A DNA stretch of 49,084 nt, from UHGV virus genome UHGV-1369968; one strand, written 5' to 3'. Shown piece after piece: positions 1 to 49,084 of this stretch (the stretch's first letter is position 1; every line of letters starts with the position of its first letter). The stretch comes from a virus. Both the position numbers and the translations under genes were made by a program. The notes beneath the pieces are model-generated. The model searched no databases. It saw only the letters and a list, made by a program, of their open reading frames with translations, and was not told the DNA's origin.

Positions 1-30
1 CTTTTTTTGTTGTTTCTTTAATGCTCATAA

Positions 31-567
31 CTAAATCCTCATTGGCATAACAATAACTTTGGCAGTCTCGCCAGTGGGTGCACTGATGTTTGCGACGGCG
101 GCGTTGATGTTGCCGCTCAGCTCAAAGCGCACGCTTTCATATTTCGGGTTAAACAGCTTCGCCAGCTTCTCAACATCTGCCAGATATTTGGCATTAAAGC
201 CAATCTGTTCTGCTGGCGCAGTCTGCTTCGGGATGACGCGATCAATATCAGGGAACTTGCCATCAACCTCAGAGCAAATACCTGCGCCAACCAGCACATC
301 AAAATTGTTATGATAAGTGACAATCTTTGCCCTGGTATCAATCACTGCATAAGAGTAATTTTTTGTCGGCGACTTGCTTACCGATACGATGACGTTACTT
401 TTTATTTTGTTTTCGTGCTTACTGGCAATTATGGCGCGATGACCGTCAGTAGCGGCAACGCGACCATCAGGCATAAAGCAAATGCCATTCAGGTAGTAAC
501 GCACATCCTGTTTGGCCTGAAATATCAAAGCACCTTCAAGAAGCAACTTGCTGACTTTTAATTTCAT
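31..567 (-). CDS. DnaN-like sliding-clamp fragment (beta-clamp domains II-III only)
   Basis: Aligns to the E. coli DnaN C-terminal half: 'QDVRYYLNGI..ATDGHR' matches the 'QDVRYYLNGMLF..ATDGHRL' block, and the C-terminal 'KVIVMPMRI' matches the DnaN 'YVVMPMRL' end. The start is moved to M15 (ATG 567), which has a GGTGAAGGTG RBS and overlaps the upstream stop as ATGA. The protein is about 178 aa versus 366 aa for DnaN. Confidence 0.6.
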   Translation of the reverse strand: MKLKVSKLLLEGALIFQAKQDVRYYLNGICFMPDGRVAATDGHRAIIASKHENKIKSNVIVSVSKSPTKNYSYAVIDTRAKIVTYHNNFDVLVGAGICSEVDGKFPDIDRVIPKQTAPAEQIGFNAKYLADVEKLAKLFNPKYESVRFELSGNINAAVANISAPTGETAKVIVMPMRI

Positions 568-740
568 TTCTTCACCTTCACCATGTGTTGTTTTGCAATC
601 TTCAGGCATTCATCGAAAATCTTGCCTTTCTTTTCACTCTGGTTGCGCCTGTAGTGGGTAATTGCGGCCTCTATGGCCGCGTTGTCGATACCTGGCAGTT
701 TTTCGCGCAGGTTTTTCTCTATGAATTGTTCGGGGTTCAT
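564..740 (-). CDS. hypothetical protein (58 aa)
   Basis: Start at M10 with a GGAGAG RBS. The start overlaps the upstream stop as TAATG, and the stop overlaps the DnaN-like start as ATGA, indicating translational coupling. Confidence 0.4.
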   Translation of the reverse strand: MNPEQFIEKNLREKLPGIDNAAIEAAITHYRRNQSEKKGKIFDECLKIAKQHMVKVKK

Positions 741-934
741 TACCAACTCTCCACCACGTTTGCGCATTCATCATAAAATAAGAAATGCCTTGTTTTTTCT
801 TCGTAACGCTTCATTTCAAATGCGATTATGTCCTCCTGATAGTGAATTTTCTCAACCTGGCGAGCTACGCCGTCTCGCATTAGGATGTGATCGCCTTCTT
901 TTATGTTTTTTGCAGCAGTGCCAATTGTAATCAT
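740..934 (-). CDS. hypothetical protein (64 aa)
   Basis: ATG at 934 overlaps the ParB-like stop as TGATG. It lies in the same coupled minus-strand operon. Confidence 0.4.
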   Translation of the reverse strand: MITIGTAAKNIKEGDHILMRDGVARQVEKIHYQEDIIAFEMKRYEEKTRHFLFYDECANVVESW

Positions 935-1749
935 CAAAGCTTCTCCAGAATCGCCAGCACTTCATTCAACTCCGCAGAAGGAAGGCGCAAAAATTCTTCT
1001 GTTTCTTGTGCGACATGACCCTCAGCGACAACCATATGATCTGCTTCTTTCAGCAACTGAATGAGGCGGTCAATAGGCTTAACTTTTTTGGCCTTGAGCG
1101 TTTTCGCCGTCACCTTGTCTTTACCCTGTGCCTTCGCTTCCTCAACGGCAGCATCAATAACGTTAACGGCATCATCGCCATGCTCGCGCGCCACTGCAAC
1201 GGCGTTGGCATAGCTTATTTGCCCTGCATTGATGCGCTGCTTGATGGCATCAGGCACGTCACCAAGTGACAGGTGCATCTGCACATCAGAAACCGAGCGA
1301 CCGACCTTCTTGGCGATTTCTTCATTCGTCCATCCGAACCCTTTCAGGCGCACATAAGCCTTTGCACGCTCAAGCGGGTCGAGTTGCTTACCCTGACTGG
1401 ATGACACCATGAAGGCGATTTTATCCGCTTCATCGCCGGTGAAGTCTTTGCACTCAATGCGCGCAATTGGTACGCCGCGCTCAATGGCACGCAATGCGCC
1501 AAGGTAACGATGCTGGCCGTCAAGAATCTTGATGCGCTTTCCGTCAGCATCAGGAATAACAGTTAACGCCGGGATTGGCTGGCCTGATTCCCAGCACTGC
1601 GCGAAGTATTCAACGTGCTGCTCATCGGCTTCACGGATGTTATACCCCGGCTCAAGATAAAGCTGGTCGACAGGGACCTGATAACCTTTGTTGACCACGA
1701 TTCCGCCGCGAGTTTCTTTGTCTGAGTAAATTTTTCCGAGAGATGTCAT
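934..1749 (-). CDS. ParB-like nuclease-domain protein (ParB/Srx N-terminal 'DGQHR' motif plus HTH region)
   Basis: The 'KILDGQHRYLGAL' block is the ParB N-terminal domain signature, and the downstream 'WTNEEIAKKVGRSVSDV' segment is HTH-like. Start placed at M13 (ATG 1749), which has a GAGGAAAAG RBS. Confidence 0.7.
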   Translation of the reverse strand: MTSLGKIYSDKETRGGIVVNKGYQVPVDQLYLEPGYNIREADEQHVEYFAQCWESGQPIPALTVIPDADGKRIKILDGQHRYLGALRAIERGVPIARIECKDFTGDEADKIAFMVSSSQGKQLDPLERAKAYVRLKGFGWTNEEIAKKVGRSVSDVQMHLSLGDVPDAIKQRINAGQISYANAVAVAREHGDDAVNVIDAAVEEAKAQGKDKVTAKTLKAKKVKPIDRLIQLLKEADHMVVAEGHVAQETEEFLRLPSAELNEVLAILEKL

Positions 1750-1756
1750 CTTTTCC

Positions 1757-1873
1757 TCACTTTGATAAACAGATTGCGCTGGCAATGGAGAATCCGATAA
1801 CGATTAACGCCAGCTTGATTTTGAACTTACCCCACGCCTTCAGGTCTTCTTTGCGGATTTCGTGGCGGATCAT
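1757..1873 (-). CDS. small hydrophobic peptide (38 aa)
   Basis: Not in the ORF track because it is under 60 aa. The ATG overlaps the upstream stop as ATGA, its own stop is followed by the ParB RBS, and it has one predicted TM ('LALIVIGFSIASAI'). Confidence 0.3.
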   Translation of the reverse strand: MIRHEIRKEDLKAWGKFKIKLALIVIGFSIASAICLSK

Positions 1874-2208
1874 TGTGCTTCTCCGAGTGCTTTGGAGATG
1901 GCGGCACGCGCTTTGTTATATGAGCACATGCATGTAAAACCATTATGGCCGCATGACTTATTACCACCTGTTTGCTCAGCCATTAATAATTGAAGTGCTT
2001 CCAGCAATTCCGGTGCGGCGGCAATGAGTTGCGCATTTGCTATTGCCACCGGACCGCGATGCTCATCATTATCAAACCAACTTATTGATGAGCAAACATT
2101 CCCAACAGTTCCGCGTACCGCGTTAATGTCATAAAAATAACCGTTATCTTCTACTTTCCACGGCCCCGGCGTACCTTTGAACTCATTCATCTTCATCACC
2201 TCTAACAT
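1870..2208 (-). CDS. hypothetical protein, paralog A of the 'KGTPGPW...AAAPELL' family
   Basis: Strong GAGGTG RBS. The shared motifs 'FKGTPGPW', 'AAAPELLEAL' and 'AISKALG' match ORF 20018..20380, and the 5' leaders are near-identical ('catcttcatcacctc'). Confidence 0.55.
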   Translation of the reverse strand: MLEVMKMNEFKGTPGPWKVEDNGYFYDINAVRGTVGNVCSSISWFDNDEHRGPVAIANAQLIAAAPELLEALQLLMAEQTGGNKSCGHNGFTCMCSYNKARAAISKALGEAQ

Positions 2209-2420
2209 TTATTGTTGTTTCTACGTCATCACTATAGCCACACCCTCAATCTACGTCAACACTTTATGATAAAATTAAACCAACAACACTCACCCCGCGC
2301 TGTTCCGTCCTGAAAAACGTAAGGCGGCGAAATTGGATATAGCAATCGGCGTTATCGTCATAGCGTTTTCGCTGGTTCAGGTGTACAGATGCTGGAAGTT
2401 CATCATTCGGAGAATAATTA

Positions 2421-7232: not shown

Positions 7233-7940
7233 ATGAGACAACGCACACCGCTAACAGAAATCGGAGAGATGCGCATCTCCCTGGCTGATAAGTCTTTTTT
7301 CTTCAAACCATCATTTGCGGCGATGAATGAGCTTGGCTCGCCGAAAGAGATTGTCGAGCTGTATGCTACGCTTAATGGCTATGAATACGCGGCTATACTT
7401 GGCGCTATTCAGTCAATGCCATATGGCGCGCAGATTCAGGTAGCAAAAATCCTGTCACGCCCTGCCTATGGTAAGAAAGTGCTTAGCGCCGCCTGTCTCA
7501 TCATGCAGTCCTGTTGCGATGATGATATTTCTGTGCTCATTGGGTCATGGAAGCCAACTCCGCGCGGTGTGAAATACGTTACCGGAAGAATGCCAGTAAA
7601 TGACATTATTATTATTGCTCGAAACCTGATGGAGCACGGTATCATTGGCAAGTCTCCGCTCAAGGTTCCTCAACGCTCGGAAAATCAAAAGCGCACAACC
7701 AGTGAGTTGAGAATGTCGGATTACATCATCTCAGCCCGCACTCATTTCGGAATTACCCGCGAGGAAGCTGAAGACCTGACCATGACCGAGTATCAGCAGA
7801 TGATAAAATCAAAATACCCGGAACCGGAAGGCATGACGCGCGAGCAGTATGATGCGTCCTATGAGCGGGCCAAGCTGAATAAACAGAAACTGAAAGAGAA
7901 AGCCGCCAGAAAGGCCGCTAAAAGCAAAGGAGAAAAATAA
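7233..7940 (+). CDS. hypothetical protein, possible tail assembly chaperone
   Basis: Sits immediately upstream of, and coupled to, the tape measure gene (ATAATG overlap at 7937-7942). Assignment by position only. Confidence 0.35.
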   Translation: MRQRTPLTEIGEMRISLADKSFFFKPSFAAMNELGSPKEIVELYATLNGYEYAAILGAIQSMPYGAQIQVAKILSRPAYGKKVLSAACLIMQSCCDDDISVLIGSWKPTPRGVKYVTGRMPVNDIIIIARNLMEHGIIGKSPLKVPQRSENQKRTTSELRMSDYIISARTHFGITREEAEDLTMTEYQQMIKSKYPEPEGMTREQYDASYERAKLNKQKLKEKAARKAAKSKGEK

Positions 7941-10864
7941 TGGCAGAAGAAGTTGGCGGCATTGTCTATGAGGTTGGCATGGAGGTTTCAGGCCTCACTG
8001 CTGGTGCTAAACAGGCAGAGGATGCACTTGACAGTATCGACAAGTCAGCGCAGAACTCATCAAAAAGCATAGATAAACTTGATGGTGCGGCATCATCATC
8101 TGGCAAAGAGCTTTCAGCGCTGGCAAAAATCGTAAGCTCCATTGATGCAACCCTAAAGGATATGGCTTCGTCATCAAAAACGGCAGCCAGCTCAGTAGAG
8201 GCGACAACCTCCAGCGCTACTGGTGCAGAGCAGGTTATTGCAGCACTAAACCAACAGCTCGCGCAGATGCAGCAGGCGCAGGTGTCAGCAAACGCAACTG
8301 GCCTTGCACTTCAAAACTCAGTCAATCAGGTTACTCAGGCAATTCGCGCGCTTGGCGCTCAGTCAACTGAAACAGGCGGCTCAATCTCTGGCATTGACAG
8401 GATGATTGAGGGTCTTGGAAACCAGATCGCAATCCTCGACGAACAAGCGGAAAAAGGTGCAAGAAGTGCGGCTATACTGGCCGCACAGCTTCGTGCAGGA
8501 GATAGTGCCACCGACGCGCAGAAAGCAAAAATAGCTGAGCTTACTGGTCGCCTGTATGACATGAAAAACGGCACGGAGGCCGCCGGGAAGTCCACCGGTA
8601 ACTTTAAAAATATAATGCAGCAGGGCGGCTATCAGATACAGGACTTTATCGTTCAGGTTCAGGGAGGGCAGTCTGCGCTTGTGGCATTTAGTCAGCAAGG
8701 TTCGCAGCTGGCTTCTGTATTTAGCCCCGTGGCAGGCGCAGTGCTTACCATCGCAACAGTTATTGCCGGGTCACTGATAGCGTCACTCGGCAATGGTAAA
8801 AACGCCGTTGATTCACTAAAAGAAGCAATAGCGACCATGGATAGCGTTGTGTCGGTTTCATCTTCTGGTGTCGCTGTCTATACCGACAAATTTTCCCAGC
8901 TTGCAAAAGCTAACTCAGCGGTAGCTACCCTGATGCGACAACAGGCGCAGCTTGAGTTGCAGGCGGCCCTGTCTAAAGTTTCAGCGGAAATCACAAAGGC
9001 ATCAAGTGACTTTATCGGCTTTGGTGATTCACTTGTCTCATCACTTGGCGGCGGCTATGCCAGCGTGAAGCTGTTCAATGATTACATGTCACAGCTTAAT
9101 ATCACAACGAATAGCTGGACTGAAGCCATTAAACAAGCATCAGCAGCAGGCCAGGCAGGTCAGACGTCAATGAATGGCATGATTGCCACGGTAGGCGCGT
9201 TAGCTGGTAAATTCCAGCTCTCAGACCAGCAGGCTTTCGAATTTGCAAAACAGCTTTCTGATATTGCAAAAAACCCATCTGATGAGAAGCTAAAGGCGCT
9301 GATTATCACGTTACAAAAAGTCAGCGAAGGAACATCCAGCGGAGCGGCAACGGCACGAGAGTATGCCAAAAGTCTACTGGCTATTGTAACTAGTACGGCT
9401 GACGCAACACAGCGCCTGAAAGTTTTAAAACAAATGACTGATGAGTTAACTGACTCTCAGGATAAAGCGTTGCAGCAGGCTAAGCAGACCCTTTTCATTG
9501 AGCGACAGACTGGCGTAGAGAAACAGAAGGCTCTCGCATGGCGTGATGCTGAGAATCAGGGGCTAAAAGCCGGGACTCAGGCATTCCGTGACTATTACAA
9601 TGTTCGACTGCAAACCTATCAGCAACAGGAGAAAAATGCACAAGCCCTGAAAGATGAGCGTAGCGCGCAAAGTGCTGCGCAATCAGCGGCGAAAAAAGCA
9701 GCCACAGAGCAGGAGAATATCGCCAATAAACTTGAGCAGCTTCGCCAGAAGTCACTGCTTACCGCTGAAAGTACAAGAGAGCTTAACCGCGAACAGTCAA
9801 TACTGGCTGCTCAGCAATCACTTGGCAAGGGAGCCACTCAGGAGCAAATTAACCTTGCCGGGCAATATGCTGCTAAGGCATGGGATAATGCTAACGCGCT
9901 CAAGGCTCAGGCAGAGGCGGAGAAAAAAAGAGCCGAAGCTGTAAAAGGATTTGCTGCATTAAAATCGCAGACATCCCCAATGTTTGCTGTTGAAACAAAT
10001 TATCAGAAAGATTTAGCAGCGCTCAATGCTTACGCAGTAGCTTACCCGCAAAAGATAGCGGAGGTTGAGCAGGCCAGAGCAGCTATTGAGGAACAATACC
10101 GCCAGCAGCGCCTTGATGCCATGTGGCAGGAGTGGAGTCAGCAAAATGCGGCTACGCAAGCGGCTGCTGCTGCATTTGATGCTTTTGGGCAAACCGCAAG
10201 CAATGCCTTAACTGGCGTTCTGACTGGCTCAATGTCTGTTAGTGAGGCGCTACAGTCAATAGGGAGCAATGTGTTAAATGCGGTTATTAACTCTTTCGTT
10301 CAGATGGGTGTGGAGTGGCTTAAATCGGTGATTATGGGGCAGGTTGGTATGACCGCAGCCGCAGGAATGGCGGCGGCTCAGGCCCAGCTAATCGCAGCGG
10401 CAATGGCACCAGCGGCAGCAATGACCTCGCTTGCTACAGCTGGTGCGAACGCAATCCCTGCACAGGCTGGCATTGTTTCCACCGTTGGTGTAGCTAAAGC
10501 AATGTCTGTTGCCGGTGCATTAAAGAATGGCGGCCCTGCGCAGGCTGGATCAATGTATCAGGTCGGCGAGAACAACCTACCTGAAATCTTCCAGGCCAGC
10601 AATGGCAATCAGTACATGATACCTGGCGACAATGGAAAGGTTATAAGCAACAAAGACCTTACCGGCGGTTCTTCTGGTGGTGGCTTAATTATAAATAACA
10701 ATGTTTATAATAATTCAAGTGGAGCAACAGCAACTACCAGTGCGAGAGACAATGGGGATGGCTCGATTACAATTGAAACAATCGTCGCAGATATAGACAA
10801 TGGAGGCGCTGTTGGGCAGGCAATTTCAAGGAATTACAGCACCAACAGAAGAGCTACAGAGTAA
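7940..10864 (+). CDS. tail tape measure protein
   Basis: 974 aa, Ala/Gln-rich coiled-coil with a C-terminal Gly/hydrophobic region ('GMTAAAGMAAAQAQLIAAAMA'), positioned between chaperone and distal tail genes. Confidence 0.85.
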   Translation: MAEEVGGIVYEVGMEVSGLTAGAKQAEDALDSIDKSAQNSSKSIDKLDGAASSSGKELSALAKIVSSIDATLKDMASSSKTAASSVEATTSSATGAEQVIAALNQQLAQMQQAQVSANATGLALQNSVNQVTQAIRALGAQSTETGGSISGIDRMIEGLGNQIAILDEQAEKGARSAAILAAQLRAGDSATDAQKAKIAELTGRLYDMKNGTEAAGKSTGNFKNIMQQGGYQIQDFIVQVQGGQSALVAFSQQGSQLASVFSPVAGAVLTIATVIAGSLIASLGNGKNAVDSLKEAIATMDSVVSVSSSGVAVYTDKFSQLAKANSAVATLMRQQAQLELQAALSKVSAEITKASSDFIGFGDSLVSSLGGGYASVKLFNDYMSQLNITTNSWTEAIKQASAAGQAGQTSMNGMIATVGALAGKFQLSDQQAFEFAKQLSDIAKNPSDEKLKALIITLQKVSEGTSSGAATAREYAKSLLAIVTSTADATQRLKVLKQMTDELTDSQDKALQQAKQTLFIERQTGVEKQKALAWRDAENQGLKAGTQAFRDYYNVRLQTYQQQEKNAQALKDERSAQSAAQSAAKKAATEQENIANKLEQLRQKSLLTAESTRELNREQSILAAQQSLGKGATQEQINLAGQYAAKAWDNANALKAQAEAEKKRAEAVKGFAALKSQTSPMFAVETNYQKDLAALNAYAVAYPQKIAEVEQARAAIEEQYRQQRLDAMWQEWSQQNAATQAAAAAFDAFGQTASNALTGVLTGSMSVSEALQSIGSNVLNAVINSFVQMGVEWLKSVIMGQVGMTAAAGMAAAQAQLIAAAMAPAAAMTSLATAGANAIPAQAGIVSTVGVAKAMSVAGALKNGGPAQAGSMYQVGENNLPEIFQASNGNQYMIPGDNGKVISNKDLTGGSSGGGLIINNNVYNNSSGATATTSARDNGDGSITIETIVADIDNGGAVGQAISRNYSTNRRATE

Positions 10865-20017: not shown

Positions 20018-20380
20018 TTATTTTCCTAACGCCTTATTAATTGCAGCATCCATTGATTCAGTATCAAATCCGCCTCTATCTGGAGAATCCATCCACCATT
20101 CATCTGATTCTTCTATAATTTTTCTCGCCTTAATCAGTTCAGCAAGCAACTCAGGTGCTGCTGCCATTAGTTTGAAATCATGCTCAACAGATGAGTCAAT
20201 TTCCCATCGCATTCCATTAAATTTTGCTCCCTTATTTGAATAAGCAATATTTCTAGAATCATCATTGTGGCATCCCGGAGTATCATCAACGCAACTGGCA
20301 GGATAAATTGCTGCGCAACCACCTCTGATGTCTGCAATCCATGGCCCCGGCGTACCTTTGAACTTATCCATCTTCATCAC
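20018..20380 (-). CDS. hypothetical protein, paralog B of the 'KGTPGPW...AAAPELL' family
   Basis: See 1870..2208. Identical RBS and leader, motifs 'FKGTPGPW' and 'AAAPELLAEL'. Confidence 0.55.
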   Translation of the reverse strand: MMKMDKFKGTPGPWIADIRGGCAAIYPASCVDDTPGCHNDDSRNIAYSNKGAKFNGMRWEIDSSVEHDFKLMAAAPELLAELIKARKIIEESDEWWMDSPDRGGFDTESMDAAINKALGK

Positions 20381-34132: not shown

Positions 34133-34615
34133 ATGAATTGGAATGAAATATTTTCTTACTCCGATGGAAATCTTATATGGGAGAGGGTTAACAGGAATAG
34201 ATATAATAAGCCTGGCGATATTGCTGGCAGGCTAAACACGACAAACGGTTACTTGTATGTAAAAGTAAATCAGGAAGTGAGATCGGTTCATAACATCATA
34301 TGGGAGATGCACAACGGGAAGGTGCCTGACGATATGGAAATTGACCACATAAACCACATTAGAACAGATAACCGCATTGAAAATTTAAGGATTGTTTCTC
34401 ATCAGCAAAACGCTATGAACAGGAGCAAAACATTAAGGAACACATCGGGCGTTGTTGGCGTATCTTGGTGCAAGATAAAAGGGAAATGGTATGCGTACAT
34501 AAAGAAAGATGGAGTAATGCATAACCTTGGGAGATACACCAATTTTGAGGATGCTGCTCTGGCAAGATCGTCTGCCGAAAAGAGGCTTGGCTTCCATGAG
34601 AACCACGGCTCTTGA
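34133..34615 (+). CDS. HNH homing endonuclease with C-terminal AP2 domain
   Basis: 'EIDHINHIRTDNRIENLRIVSHQQN' is the HNH_3 motif, and 'SGVVGVSWCKIKGKWYAYIKKDGVMHNLGRYTNFEDAALA' is the AP2 motif. Inserted between the TerL island and portal. Confidence 0.8.
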   Translation: MNWNEIFSYSDGNLIWERVNRNRYNKPGDIAGRLNTTNGYLYVKVNQEVRSVHNIIWEMHNGKVPDDMEIDHINHIRTDNRIENLRIVSHQQNAMNRSKTLRNTSGVVGVSWCKIKGKWYAYIKKDGVMHNLGRYTNFEDAALARSSAEKRLGFHENHGS

Positions 34616-41911: not shown

Positions 41912-42138
41912 AACCAATGATGAATGATGATGGGCTGCTGGAGTGTCCGTTTTGTGGTAGCGAAAATTCCATGCAGAACAAGGATGGGCAATGGCATTTT
42001 GTAGTATGCCAGGATTGCGGTAGCCGCACTGATGACTGGATGGTTGCAGCGACAGCAATCATTAAATGGAATACAAGAGGTGGGTTTGTTTATAGTAATT
42101 CTGATTACGAGGATATCAATGATGAAGTGCGATCTTAA
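41908..42138 (+). CDS. Lar-family restriction-alleviation-like Zn-ribbon protein
   Basis: 'CPFCGSE..(19)..CQDCGSRT' double CxxC in about 75 aa is typical of Lar-family proteins. Confidence 0.5.
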   Translation: MKPMMNDDGLLECPFCGSENSMQNKDGQWHFVVCQDCGSRTDDWMVAATAIIKWNTRGGFVYSNSDYEDINDEVRS

Positions 42139-42643
42139 TCATGAGGTTGTTTTGTCGTTAATCAATTATAACCCAGAGTCTGGGAAATTCACCAGAAAGA
42201 ATGGAAAGCAATGCGGCACAAAAACAACGAAGGGGTACATCCATGTGCGATTGCTTGGTAAAAAGCGTCTTGCGCATCGTTTGGCTTGGTTTTATGTCTA
42301 CGGCGAATGGCCAGAGCATGAAATTGACCATATTAACGGAGTAAAGGATGACAACAGGATATGCAATCTAAGGAAGGCAACAAGACAACAAAATGAATGG
42401 AACAAGCCGCAGCCAAGCACCAACACGTCTGGCGTCAAGGGTGTGCGGTTTATGTCAAGTAGAGGAAAATGGCGTGCTGATTGCGTGAGAAAAACACTTG
42501 GTTACTTTGACACAAAGCAAGATGCTATTAATGCGTTAATTAAGCACAGGAGTGAAAAACAAGGGGAATTCAAAAATCACGGCCATCTCTATATCGCTGA
42601 CGACTACAAACAGGATGCAATGGAGCGCGCAAATGGACTTTAA
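42119..42643 (+). CDS. HNH homing endonuclease with C-terminal AP2 domain (second copy)
   Basis: 'EIDHINGVKDDNRICNLR' is the HNH motif and 'SGVKGVRFMSSRGKWRADCVRKTLGYFDTKQDAINA' is the AP2 motif. GAGGA RBS before the ATG at 42119. Confidence 0.75.
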   Translation: MMKCDLNHEVVLSLINYNPESGKFTRKNGKQCGTKTTKGYIHVRLLGKKRLAHRLAWFYVYGEWPEHEIDHINGVKDDNRICNLRKATRQQNEWNKPQPSTNTSGVKGVRFMSSRGKWRADCVRKTLGYFDTKQDAINALIKHRSEKQGEFKNHGHLYIADDYKQDAMERANGL

Positions 42644-46946: not shown

Positions 46947-46973
46947 AAAGGGGGCGTTAGCCCCCTTCTTTAT
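46947..46973. terminator. bidirectional rho-independent terminator
   Basis: AAAGGGGGCGTTAGCCCCCTTCTTTAT. Confidence 0.75.
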
Positions 46974-47754
46974 ACCTTATCTCGCCATAAACCATCCATT
47001 GAAGCATATAGCACCACTCCCACTCTGTAATATCATCCCTTAGCCATCGGCTATTCTTTTTGAAATTGTACTCTGCGGGTTCAGCTTTAAGGTTGTACAG
47101 GCAATTAACCAGTTCTGGATGTATAAGTCCATTCTTAACAAACCAGTTCACAGGAAGAATGTGATCAATATGCCACGAACTTCTATCATCAAAATTCATC
47201 CATGGCTCCATTGTTGACTCTATATGATTAATAAATTCATCCTTTGAGTAACCAAGAACTTCATCAACGCTTGAATCAGAAAGAATGGCGCCAATCTTGA
47301 CGTCCATCCTTTCCAGAGTCTTCCTCAGCAACCTATGGTGTGGATTGTCTGTCGCCCATTGCTTTACGTTTTGCAGTGCCTTTGCGTTACCATTTTTTGA
47401 GTAATACCATTTACGATAAATCTTCCTTTTCTTCTCCAGGAACGCCTCGCGCCTCAAAGGGTCTTCTCTCATCCTTTTGCTATATTTGGAGCCATTAAGC
47501 GACCTCCTTCTCCTGTTTTCTTCCTTTGAGTAATATTTATCATATGATTTTTTCCGGCTAATGCGCTCCCTTTCCTGCCCCTCACTTGTTGCGCGCTTGG
47601 CTCTGGTGAACTCATACAAGCAATCCTTGCATCTTCCTCCACCGGCAGTAAAAAAGGTGACACAACCACATTTTGCGCATGGTATTTCAGTGCAGACAAA
47701 CTGCTTTAATCCCTGCTCTCTGGCTTTAATTGCCAGCTCTTTTCTTGTAGTCAT
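46957..47754 (-). CDS. HNH-type endonuclease with N-terminal Zn ribbon (homing endonuclease in capsid module)
   Basis: 'SWHIDHILPVNWFVKNGLIHPELVNCLYNL' fits an HNH core (H-DH..P...N....N), with an N-terminal 'CAKCGC...CKDC' ribbon. Start moved to ATG 47754 (MTTRKEL) because the 5' extension overlaps a + gene. Confidence 0.55.
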   Translation of the reverse strand: MTTRKELAIKAREQGLKQFVCTEIPCAKCGCVTFFTAGGGRCKDCLYEFTRAKRATSEGQERERISRKKSYDKYYSKEENRRRRSLNGSKYSKRMREDPLRREAFLEKKRKIYRKWYYSKNGNAKALQNVKQWATDNPHHRLLRKTLERMDVKIGAILSDSSVDEVLGYSKDEFINHIESTMEPWMNFDDRSSWHIDHILPVNWFVKNGLIHPELVNCLYNLKAEPAEYNFKKNSRWLRDDITEWEWCYMLQWMVYGEIRYKEGG

Positions 47755-47791
47755 GGTGTAATCCTTGCTGATTTGGTTTTGCCATCTTAGC

Positions 47792-47816
47792 ACATCTACA
47801 TTTGATGTGTTATAAT
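47792..47816 (+). promoter_or_regulatory. motif-like element CATCTACATTTGA abutting extended -10 TGtgTTATAAT
   Basis: Upstream of the 47846 gene. Same architecture as the other + strand promoters. Confidence 0.45.
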
Positions 47817-47845
47817 TAATCAACATCAAAATAGAGGTATTTATC

Positions 47846-48040
47846 ATGGCTAAATACGAAGTTATTGCCAGCGGAATCTTCGTCAAGGATAAAGACGGTC
47901 GGCTGCGGGAGCTTGCCATTGGCGACGTGATTGACGAATCGACTCCGCACATTGAGTCAAAACTTCGCCCGGTTAGTGAGAAAATTCTGGAAGTTGCAAC
48001 TCCGCAAGAATCGCAGCCAAAGGCGAAGAAAACCAAGTAA
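47846..48040 (+). CDS. small hypothetical protein (64 aa)
   Basis: AGAGGT RBS, and it ends at the terminator at 48044-48069. Confidence 0.4.
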   Translation: MAKYEVIASGIFVKDKDGRLRELAIGDVIDESTPHIESKLRPVSEKILEVATPQESQPKAKKTK

Positions 48041-48043
48041 AAT

Positions 48044-48069
48044 AAACCCGCAAACAAGCGGGTTTTTTA
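48044..48069 (+). terminator. rho-independent terminator
   Basis: AACCCGCAAACAAGCGGGTTTTTTATT. Confidence 0.7.
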
Positions 48070-48900: not shown

Positions 48901-48929
48901 TAAAAGAAAAGCCCCGTAAGGGGCTTTGT

Positions 48930-49084
48930 TTATTGTTTATCCGGGTCGGCGTAGAAATTCAGTAGCTTTATGAAATCTCTTTTCCCTGAATGATTAAGAT
49001 AAAATCCGGCAATTTCATTAAATACTTCATTTGATGCTTTTACAGAGCAGCCCATGTTGAGTGCGTCACGGGCTGCAATGGCCG
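48930..49084 (-). CDS. 3' end of a minus-strand gene whose N-terminus lies beyond the window
   Basis: Open frame '...AIAARDALNMGCSVKASNEVFNEIAGFYLNHSGKRDFIKLLNFYADPDKQ*' that ends at the shared terminator. Confidence 0.3.
   Translation of the reverse strand, partial: AIAARDALNMGCSVKASNEVFNEIAGFYLNHSGKRDFIKLLNFYADPDKQ

Follow-up and report, generated by a model that had tools for sequence, protein, structure and literature searches.

A family of truncated phage beta-clamp homologs that retains the client-docking pocket and lacks the dimer interface

A truncated clamp gene in a seven-gene operon

The 49,084-bp virus genome UHGV-1369968 (hereafter the window, the whole stretch of DNA that was analyzed) carries close to its first position a gene for a 178–amino acid (aa) protein related to the bacterial sliding clamp DnaN (the beta clamp). 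We refer to this protein as mini-beta. It is a truncated homolog of beta in which the segments that form the beta dimer interface are missing, while the pocket that receives beta-binding proteins is kept. The window represents the complete genome of a siphophage with circularly joined ends, since the open reading frame (ORF) of one gene of the mini-beta operon, g7, stays in frame across the window ends.

Mini-beta is encoded in a compact operon of seven genes, all located on the minus strand. The operon is opened by g1 (2208..1870; 112 aa), which belongs to phrog_1273, a family with a function-less label. Its end overlaps, as ATGA, the start of g2 (1873..1757), which codes for 38 aa with a single hydrophobic stretch (LALIVIGFSIASAICL) and is described as transmembrane in the record of phage RSU-F4K5. 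A 7-nt gap containing a GAGGAA Shine-Dalgarno sequence separates g2 from a gene for a 271-aa ParB/Spo0J-like DNA binding protein (1749..934). This ParB-like gene is joined through TGATG to g4 (934..740; 64 aa), which occupies a variable cargo slot, and g4 is joined through TAATG to g5 (740..564; 58 aa, basic; phrog_4439). The junction of g5 with the mini-beta gene (567..31) is again an ATGA overlap, and g5 lies directly 5′ of mini-beta, coupled to it in the same way, in every member of the clade that was inspected. The last gene, g7 (28..1 and 49084..48930; 60 aa), has its ATG (28..26) 2 nt past the mini-beta stop and terminates at a TAA (48932..48930). The first-pass annotation of this DNA had described start/stop overlaps (ATGA, TAATG, and TGATG) tying mini-beta to its upstream genes in one operon with the ParB-like gene. 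The junctions bear this out, including the translational coupling, except that the unit comprises seven genes rather than five.

The mini-beta ORF extends from an ATG at 567 to a TAG at 33..31. A 192-aa reading from an ATG at 609 is unlikely; phrog_3007 aligns only from residue 15 of this longer product and relatives begin with MK[LI]K, and the start was therefore placed at 567. A sigma-70–like promoter (2259..2231, minus strand; TTGACG-17-TATAGT, 10/12 matches) is located 22 nt 5′ of g1; it is a consensus match only, and such sites are no commoner in this region than in shuffled sequence. Downstream of g7, a bidirectional intrinsic terminator (48908-48927) ends the operon. The terminator hairpin is also present after the last gene of the corresponding operon of Flyfo siphovirus Tbat1_6.

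The operon is flanked by the capsid gene cluster on one side and by the head-tail genes on the other and is encoded on the strand opposite to theirs. The same arrangement is found in Flyfo siphovirus Tbat1_6, Klebsiella phages RSU-F4K5 and KpV2811, and Shigella phage DS8 (genus Deseoctovirus). The slot between the ParB-like gene and g5 varies: it is filled by a small ORF in the window and by a C5 or other methyltransferase, an HNH, or an endonuclease VII gene in the relatives. The first gene of the operon is variable as well and in DS8 is annotated as an anti-restriction protein.

Scans of the window ORFs with PHROG profiles revealed a single-stranded DNA binding protein (SSB), Erf, a RecE-like exonuclease, two helicases, a primase, the terminase, the portal, the major capsid protein, tail genes, and several homing endonuclease–like genes. 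Neither a DNA polymerase nor a clamp loader was found in these scans, and the phage must therefore replicate with host DNA polymerase III (Pol III). No integrase was detected among the window ORFs scanned, and a megablast search (roughly at least 85% identity) produced no nucleotide match to the phage in complete Escherichia coli genomes or in PLSDB plasmids. The phage is thus apparently virulent; plasmid-like or prophage carriage was considered and rejected on account of the null matches in these two collections.

Mini-beta is a truncated DnaN homolog

When mini-beta was compared with the sequences in the Protein Data Bank (PDB) using phmmer, the beta clamp of Enterobacter cloacae (6AMQ) was matched with an E value of 5e-16 and E. 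coli beta with one of ~2e-15. The matching stretches paired mini-beta residues 7-160 with beta residues 136-295 and mini-beta residues 120-178 with beta residues 315-366. The TIGR00663 profile of full-length DnaN matched with an E value of 1e-10, but the score was 41 bits against a cut-off of 137.65, and only profile positions 138-252 were covered. Mini-beta was also matched by phrog_947, “DNA polymerase processivity factor” (E = 4e-11), and, over almost the whole profile (positions 1-186 of 190), by phrog_3007 (E = 1.3e-57). In a Pfam scan, DNA_pol3_beta_2 and DNA_pol3_beta_3 scored 21.4 and 16.1 bits, and the model of the N-terminal clamp domain gave no match. Both scores fail to reach the gathering cut-off of 27, so that the homology would have been underestimated from Pfam alone.

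A structure predicted with AlphaFold from an alignment of 83 diverse relatives had a predicted local distance difference test score (pLDDT) of 97.3 and a predicted template modeling score (pTM) of 0.91, and its fold is that of the beta clamp. No solved structure of a short relative of mini-beta was found in the PDB. Overall, mini-beta is homologous to clamp domains in both sequence and predicted fold, and the similarity is far beyond chance; it falls outside the full DnaN class, whose members have three clamp domains and ~366 aa and score above the curated cut-off. The first-pass reading of the gene as a genuine, truncated DnaN homolog that is complete within the window is thus supported by the profile matches and by the intact ORF.

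The segments forming the beta dimer interface are missing

To define what was kept and what was lost, mini-beta was placed in a family alignment that included residues 130-366 of E. coli beta. Residues 1-114 of mini-beta correspond to beta residues 135-250, i.e., to nearly all of domain II, with M1-K2 aligned to M135-K136. Residues 119-178 correspond to beta residues 313-366 and are anchored by IGFNAKYL (IGFNVSYV in beta) and by the C-terminal VIVMPMRI (YVVMPMRL in beta). Domain I is absent, and nothing in mini-beta corresponds to beta residues ~251-312, which form the first beta-alpha-beta-beta-beta motif, and thus the first half, of domain III. The first-pass annotation had started the match at the QDVRYYLNGM block of domain II, whereas the alignment starts at M135/K136. 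It had also listed domain I and a part of domain II as missing; the absence of domain I stands, and the lost internal piece is instead the first half of domain III, together with, judging by the predicted structure, the second helix of domain II.

The latter loss is suggested by the model, which contains only two long helices (residues 7-16 and 126-139) and none at residues 64-72, which we take from the beta structure to be the place where the second helix of domain II should lie. The linker and the C-terminal MPMR tail are retained, as are two helices and the sheet across the domain II/III junction. By the pseudo-symmetry of the clamp, this surviving unit would represent three consecutive motifs of the ring: a helix-less flank together with an intact sheet of eight strands that extends across the boundary of domains II and III and carries one helix on each side. 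In comparison, the bacterial clamp (366 aa; E. coli structures 2POL and 1MMI) possesses all the elements that the 178-aa mini-beta is missing.

The beta dimer is held together by I78 and F106 of domain I and by I272 and L273, with R103, E298, and E304 also contributing to the interface (PMC11139829). According to the alignment, all of these residues fall within segments that mini-beta does not have. The head-to-tail interface of beta (I78 and F106 in domain I; I272, L273, E298, and E304 in domain III) therefore has no equivalent in mini-beta, which would be unable to form the canonical head-to-tail dimer.

The client-docking pocket is preserved

Proteins that act on the clamp dock through short clamp-binding motifs in a pocket of 18 residues, as summarized in a 2024 review of the beta clamp (PMC11139829). 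Subsite I is formed by R152, L155, T172, G174, H175, R176, L177, P242, R246, V247, V360, and M362 and subsite II by H175, N320, Y323, V344, M362, P363, M364, and R365 (PMC11139829). Fifteen of the 18 pocket residues are identical in mini-beta and E. coli beta, compared to 47 of 138 (34%) at the other aligned positions (Fisher test, P = 8e-5), and the three changes (L177A, V344I, and V360I) are conservative. The same is observed throughout the family. Among 132 representatives of clusters formed at 50% identity, mean identity to the E. coli residue was 0.72 in the pocket and 0.22 elsewhere, a gap that was not reached in any of 100,000 permutations. Ten of the 13 most conserved columns of the 132-representative alignment are pocket residues. 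The retention of these residues at over 90%, while the family otherwise drifted to ~30% identity, argues that the cleft is still in use. Judged by sequence, the clamp-binding-motif pocket is thus present in mini-beta, and docking of peptides into it is predicted.

The possible origin of the ligand was considered as well. A six-frame scan of the window and of Dhillonvirus TheodorHerzl for the strict clamp-binding motifs Q[LIVM]x[LM]F and Q[LIVM]x[LM]xF found none in real ORFs; all matches were located in short off-frame ORFs. Looser versions of the motif were set aside as too frequent. At the level of strict motifs, a phage-encoded ligand of the pocket was thus rejected for these two genomes. 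A host-like pocket is retained in phages that infect Enterobacteria, Vibrio, Burkholderia, and Xanthomonas. Since such different hosts are involved and no strict motif occurs in real phage ORFs, the ligand of the mini-beta pocket is probably a host protein, i.e., one or several of the host’s clamp clients.

A second feature distinguishes mini-beta from the cellular clamp. The bacterial clamp is acidic (pI of 5.2 for E. coli beta), whereas mini-beta is basic (pI of 9.4, net charge of +7); the median pI of the family is 8.2. Family-conserved lysines and arginines occur on the two helices or next to them (positions 11, 19, 134, 137, and 142), and the E. coli counterparts of these positions are E140, H148, N329, and K332. 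In beta, the equivalent helices face DNA. The arrangement of charges hints at direct DNA binding by mini-beta through a basic helical face.

A large family in accessory genomic positions

To estimate the size of the family, 1.84 billion cluster representatives were searched exhaustively with HMMER. The search returned 2,464 hits, in which more than 140 clusters (50% identity) of 170- to 220-aa proteins outscored the first full-length DnaN. Longer family members contain the DnaN central domain only and add no other domain, and thus no informative fusion was found. A tblastn search located the mini-beta gene in 270 phage records. The ratio of nonsynonymous to synonymous substitution rates (dN/dS) was 0.07 to 0.17 among five mini-beta orthologs, showing that the family is under purifying selection. 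In line with the first-pass annotation, the gene is conserved in related phages, also beyond the relatives that share the operon.

The gene is found in several kinds of context. In Dhillonvirus TheodorHerzl, Kagunavirus Snoke, Naesvirus Bcep781 (gp15), and Gorganvirus, it is a lone reverse-strand gene within the head/tail clusters; in Snoke, it has an annotated ribosome binding site and terminators. In Sortsnevirus and in Vibrio phage R20L, it is located among DNA metabolism genes and adjoins Dam-type methyltransferases. In lambdoid prophages of Salmonella, Klebsiella, and Providencia, it belongs to the early-left operon, between a CI-like repressor and xis/int. Only one lambdoid locus extends to replication genes, with DnaB/DnaC-like genes lying beyond the repressor. 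A restriction of mini-beta to polymerase-less phages was considered and rejected, since Dhillonvirus encodes its own Pol I and carries mini-beta. Overall, these positions are typical of accessory, host-directed genes and not of a core part of the replisome.

Two further regularities were seen in the prophages. On Klebsiella and Providencia chromosomes and in plasmid-borne prophages, the mini-beta gene immediately follows a gene for a Rha- or ANT-type regulator, and xis/int come a few genes later. Each prophage mini-beta gene is followed by a conserved ORF of 74 to 75 aa.

A proposed ring-less copy of the docking cleft

The pattern of loss and retention is best explained, with somewhat better than even confidence, if mini-beta is a ring-less mimic of the client-docking cleft of the beta clamp that binds the host partners of the clamp. 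According to this scheme, mini-beta would bind the short motifs (QLxLF type) by which host proteins ordinarily attach to beta. Candidate clients are the alpha, epsilon, and delta subunits of Pol III; Pol II, Pol IV, and Pol V; MutS and MutL; and Hda. The protein would probably sit on DNA via its lysine-rich helical face. Early expression from the operon’s own promoter would then redirect the traffic of clamp clients during infection, with one of two possible outcomes. Mini-beta may act as a sponge, pulling competing clients such as translesion polymerases, MutS/MutL, or Hda off host beta. Alternatively, it may tether a client to phage DNA in the absence of a loaded ring, much like herpesvirus UL42. 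The first-pass annotation had suggested a clamp inhibitor or hijacker, and a function of this class, acting on clamp traffic, remains the most plausible.

More tentatively, the proposal can be widened: Minimal, loader-independent copies of the cleft that form no ring may be at work in the phages and prophages of many Proteobacteria, either as a receptor decoy or as a tether for host proteins with clamp-binding motifs. A decoy of this kind could mop up translesion polymerases, MutS/MutL, or Hda and so leave host beta free for phage replication, whereas a tether could fix a host polymerase to the phage DNA with no loaded clamp.

Several considerations weigh against a cleft mimic. In every DnaN, too, the strongest conservation is found at the pocket residues, and because some of them serve the fold, their retention is partly expected in any homolog. 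The family is present both in phages that depend on host Pol III and in phages with their own Pol I, and no single client or purpose fits both. In the window, a general Pol III sponge is unlikely because this phage itself depends on Pol III. Last, there is a small chance that mini-beta assembles into an unconventional homo-oligomeric ring, for example, one composed of four copies with three motifs each.

Such a ring would make mini-beta a genuine sliding clamp, the identity implied by most GenBank records, closed in this example by twelve beta-alpha-beta-beta-beta motifs and supporting the processivity of host Pol III or of a phage polymerase. The clamp fold, the intact polymerase-docking pocket, and the basic helical face are all compatible with such a role, and clamps with two domains, PCNA and T4 gp45 among them, form trimers. 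Nevertheless, we regard a genuine clamp as unlikely. Only two of the three expected channel-lining helices remain, and both canonical interface elements are missing. In the contexts inspected, mini-beta adjoins no polymerase, clamp loader, or replication initiation gene; replication genes, where visible, lie elsewhere, and only one context places mini-beta in a cluster shared with a primase and a helicase. The scans of the window also revealed no phage clamp loader.

The loss of the interface bears equally on the idea, raised by the first-pass annotation, that the fragment heterodimerizes with or caps host DnaN. Here, mini-beta would bind a beta monomer through the dimer interface and cap it, poisoning host beta because rings could no longer close. 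Its descent from beta is in line with such an activity, and, by the pseudo-symmetry of the clamp, the helix-less half of domain II would have an unpaired sheet edge similar to that by which domain I takes part in the interface. However, the residues that stabilize the interface (I78, F106, I272, and L273) belong to the absent or deleted segments, beta dimers are very stable, and the strongest conservation is seen at the pocket rather than at any sheet edge. Moreover, a phage without a polymerase itself needs host Pol III and beta. Capping is therefore improbable.

A partnership of mini-beta with the ParB-like protein, put forward in the first-pass annotation as a DNA-tracking module and considered here also as a partition module, is slightly less credible still, despite the shared operon and translational coupling within the clade of the window. 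The ParB-like protein itself has the domains of its family. It matches Pfam HTH_ParB with 43.3 bits (cut-off, 22.6) and KorB with 27.7 bits (cut-off, 22.3), Spo0J (1VZ0) with an E value of 1.4e-11 over residues 41-193, and phrog_1033 with an E value of 1e-87; the homology to Spo0J, ParB, Noc, and KorB extends across the N-terminal and helix-turn-helix (HTH) domains. ParB CTPases carry a CTP-binding GERRxRA box and an ENLQR box. In contrast to the chromosomal and plasmid ParB-Spo0J-KorB proteins, which are CTP-dependent clamps, the phage-borne protein reads DGQHRYL and SSSQG at these positions, and both degenerate versions are invariant in five orthologs. The CTP-binding motif that the first-pass annotation had named (GERRxR) is thus not conserved. 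No member of a ParA-like family was detected among the 36 window ORFs scanned with PHROGs, a set that includes only some of the small ORFs, and the phage has no near match in the plasmid and complete E. coli genome collections at the ~85% identity searched.

The distribution of the two genes leads to the same conclusion. Most lineages carry mini-beta without ParB: It is absent beside mini-beta in Dhillonvirus, Kagunavirus, Naesvirus, Gorganvirus, Sortsnevirus, Vibrio phages, and lambdoid prophages and present only in the phage clade of the window. Even in this clade, variable cargo genes separate the two, and their histories differ. Compared with Klebsiella phage KpV2811, the ParB-like protein shows 100% identity but mini-beta, encoded 400 bp downstream, only 69% (dS above 2), which indicates recombination inside the operon with a breakpoint in the variable cargo slot. 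The ParB-like protein is best read as a DNA binding, possibly regulatory protein of the same early operon and neither as a partition CTPase nor as an obligate partner of mini-beta. A decaying, functionless fragment of a captured dnaN would account for the truncation and for the word “fragment” in one GenBank record, but the low dN/dS, the uniform length (about 178 to 196 aa) across the more than 140 diverged clusters, the very confident predicted fold, and the gene’s own Shine-Dalgarno sequence and translational coupling make this reading hardly tenable. Both the ParB-linked module and the dead fragment are effectively excluded.

Relation to known clamps, decoys, and annotations

A cellular parallel to mini-beta is beta*, a product of E. 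coli dnaN that was reportedly described by Skaliter, Paz-Elizur, and Livneh in J Biol Chem in 1996. It is said to be induced by ultraviolet (UV) light from an internal start, to keep all of domains II and III (~232 aa), and to act as a clamp in the form of a trimer. By arithmetic, a 26-kDa C-terminal product of this kind would start at about M135 of beta, the residue with which M1 of mini-beta aligns, so that both would be N-terminally truncated proteins beginning at the start of domain II. Unlike beta* as so described, mini-beta lacks a further ~60 residues that include the interface half of domain III, and it belongs to a separate, diverged, phage-borne family.

The herpesvirus processivity factors UL42, UL44, and PF-8 have no detectable sequence relation to mini-beta. 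They consist of two full domains and are paired with a virus-encoded polymerase, whereas the mini-beta pocket matches that of the host and the phage of the window has no polymerase. Among phage proteins, Mu MuC sets a precedent for exploitation of the beta cleft (PMC12867686). MuC and Twort Gp168 (PDB 7EVP) act on the same hub of phage-host replication interactions as is proposed for mini-beta. Whereas MuC does so by means of a clamp-binding motif and Gp168 by binding to beta itself, mini-beta would reverse the strategy and copy the receptor.

Although the first-pass annotation had treated the gene as undescribed, it is already annotated in many GenBank records and for about twenty years has been labeled “DNA Pol III beta subunit (fragment).” Hundreds of phage records name it either “DNA polymerase III beta subunit” or “RusA-like Holliday junction resolvase,” Bcep781 gp15 is annotated as “DNA Pol III b subunit fragment,” and the NCBI term is “beta clamp domain-containing protein.” The RusA label is that of PHROG 3007 and has been carried into RefSeq re-annotations. 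No RusA family match to mini-beta was obtained in Pfam even at E ≤ 1, and sequence and fold are those of the beta clamp; the label is therefore apparently an error, by now propagated to many RefSeq records of phages. A better annotation would be a truncated beta-clamp–like protein of unknown role.

One genome paper used the gene as a polymerase marker for phylogeny (PMC9901506). Functional, structural, or genetic studies of the family were not found in the literature searched, where only genome announcement–style mentions came up. A paper on “DNA replication anti-defence” in Klebsiella, considered as a candidate, concerns a jumbo-phage clamp loader instead, and no mention of a clamp or beta-subunit gene of PTXU04 was found in the CRISPRi-ART study. 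New in this work are the precise deletion map, the loss of the interface with retention of the cleft, the size and spread of the family, and its consistent accessory context.

The beta clamp is a hub that coordinates bacterial polymerases, mismatch repair, and the control of replication initiation, and it is an antibiotic target. Known phage strategies plug the cleft with ligands; a family that copies only the cleft would, if the proposal is correct, be the mirror image of these strategies and a new class of phage takeover factor that mimics the receptor of a hub rather than its ligands. Mini-beta would then be the smallest natural clamp-cleft module, would reveal which clamp clients matter during infection, and could provide a small, monomer-sized natural scaffold for studying and screening cleft binders.

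Other features of the operon and the window

Two 17-nt direct repeats (TCTACGTCAtCACTaTA and TCTACGTCAaCACTtTA) at 2220-2236 and 2250-2266, 30 nt apart, overlap the −10 and −35 elements of the promoter-like sequence upstream of g1. They may constitute an operator, perhaps one recognized by the ParB-like HTH protein. At the other end of the operon, the g7 slot is variable: Flyfo siphovirus Tbat1_6 has an unrelated 83-aa gene there. Family phrog_1273 is represented twice in the window, by g1 (1870-2208, minus strand) and by a paralog in the recombination module (20018-20380, minus strand) that adjoins the RecE-like exonuclease gene.

Three homing endonuclease–like genes were identified at 34133-34615 (plus strand), 42032-42643 (plus strand), and 46957-48057 (minus strand). 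Two of them are HNH genes (phrog_99), and one contains an endonuclease VII domain. One HNH gene sits between the terminase and portal genes. The endonuclease VII gene is located on the reverse strand just past the major capsid gene and abuts a bidirectional terminator (48044-48065). In Klebsiella phage RSU-F4K5, the head-tail cluster includes a gene annotated as “transposase/putative RNA-guided endonuclease” (7775-8890), which has no counterpart at that position of the window.

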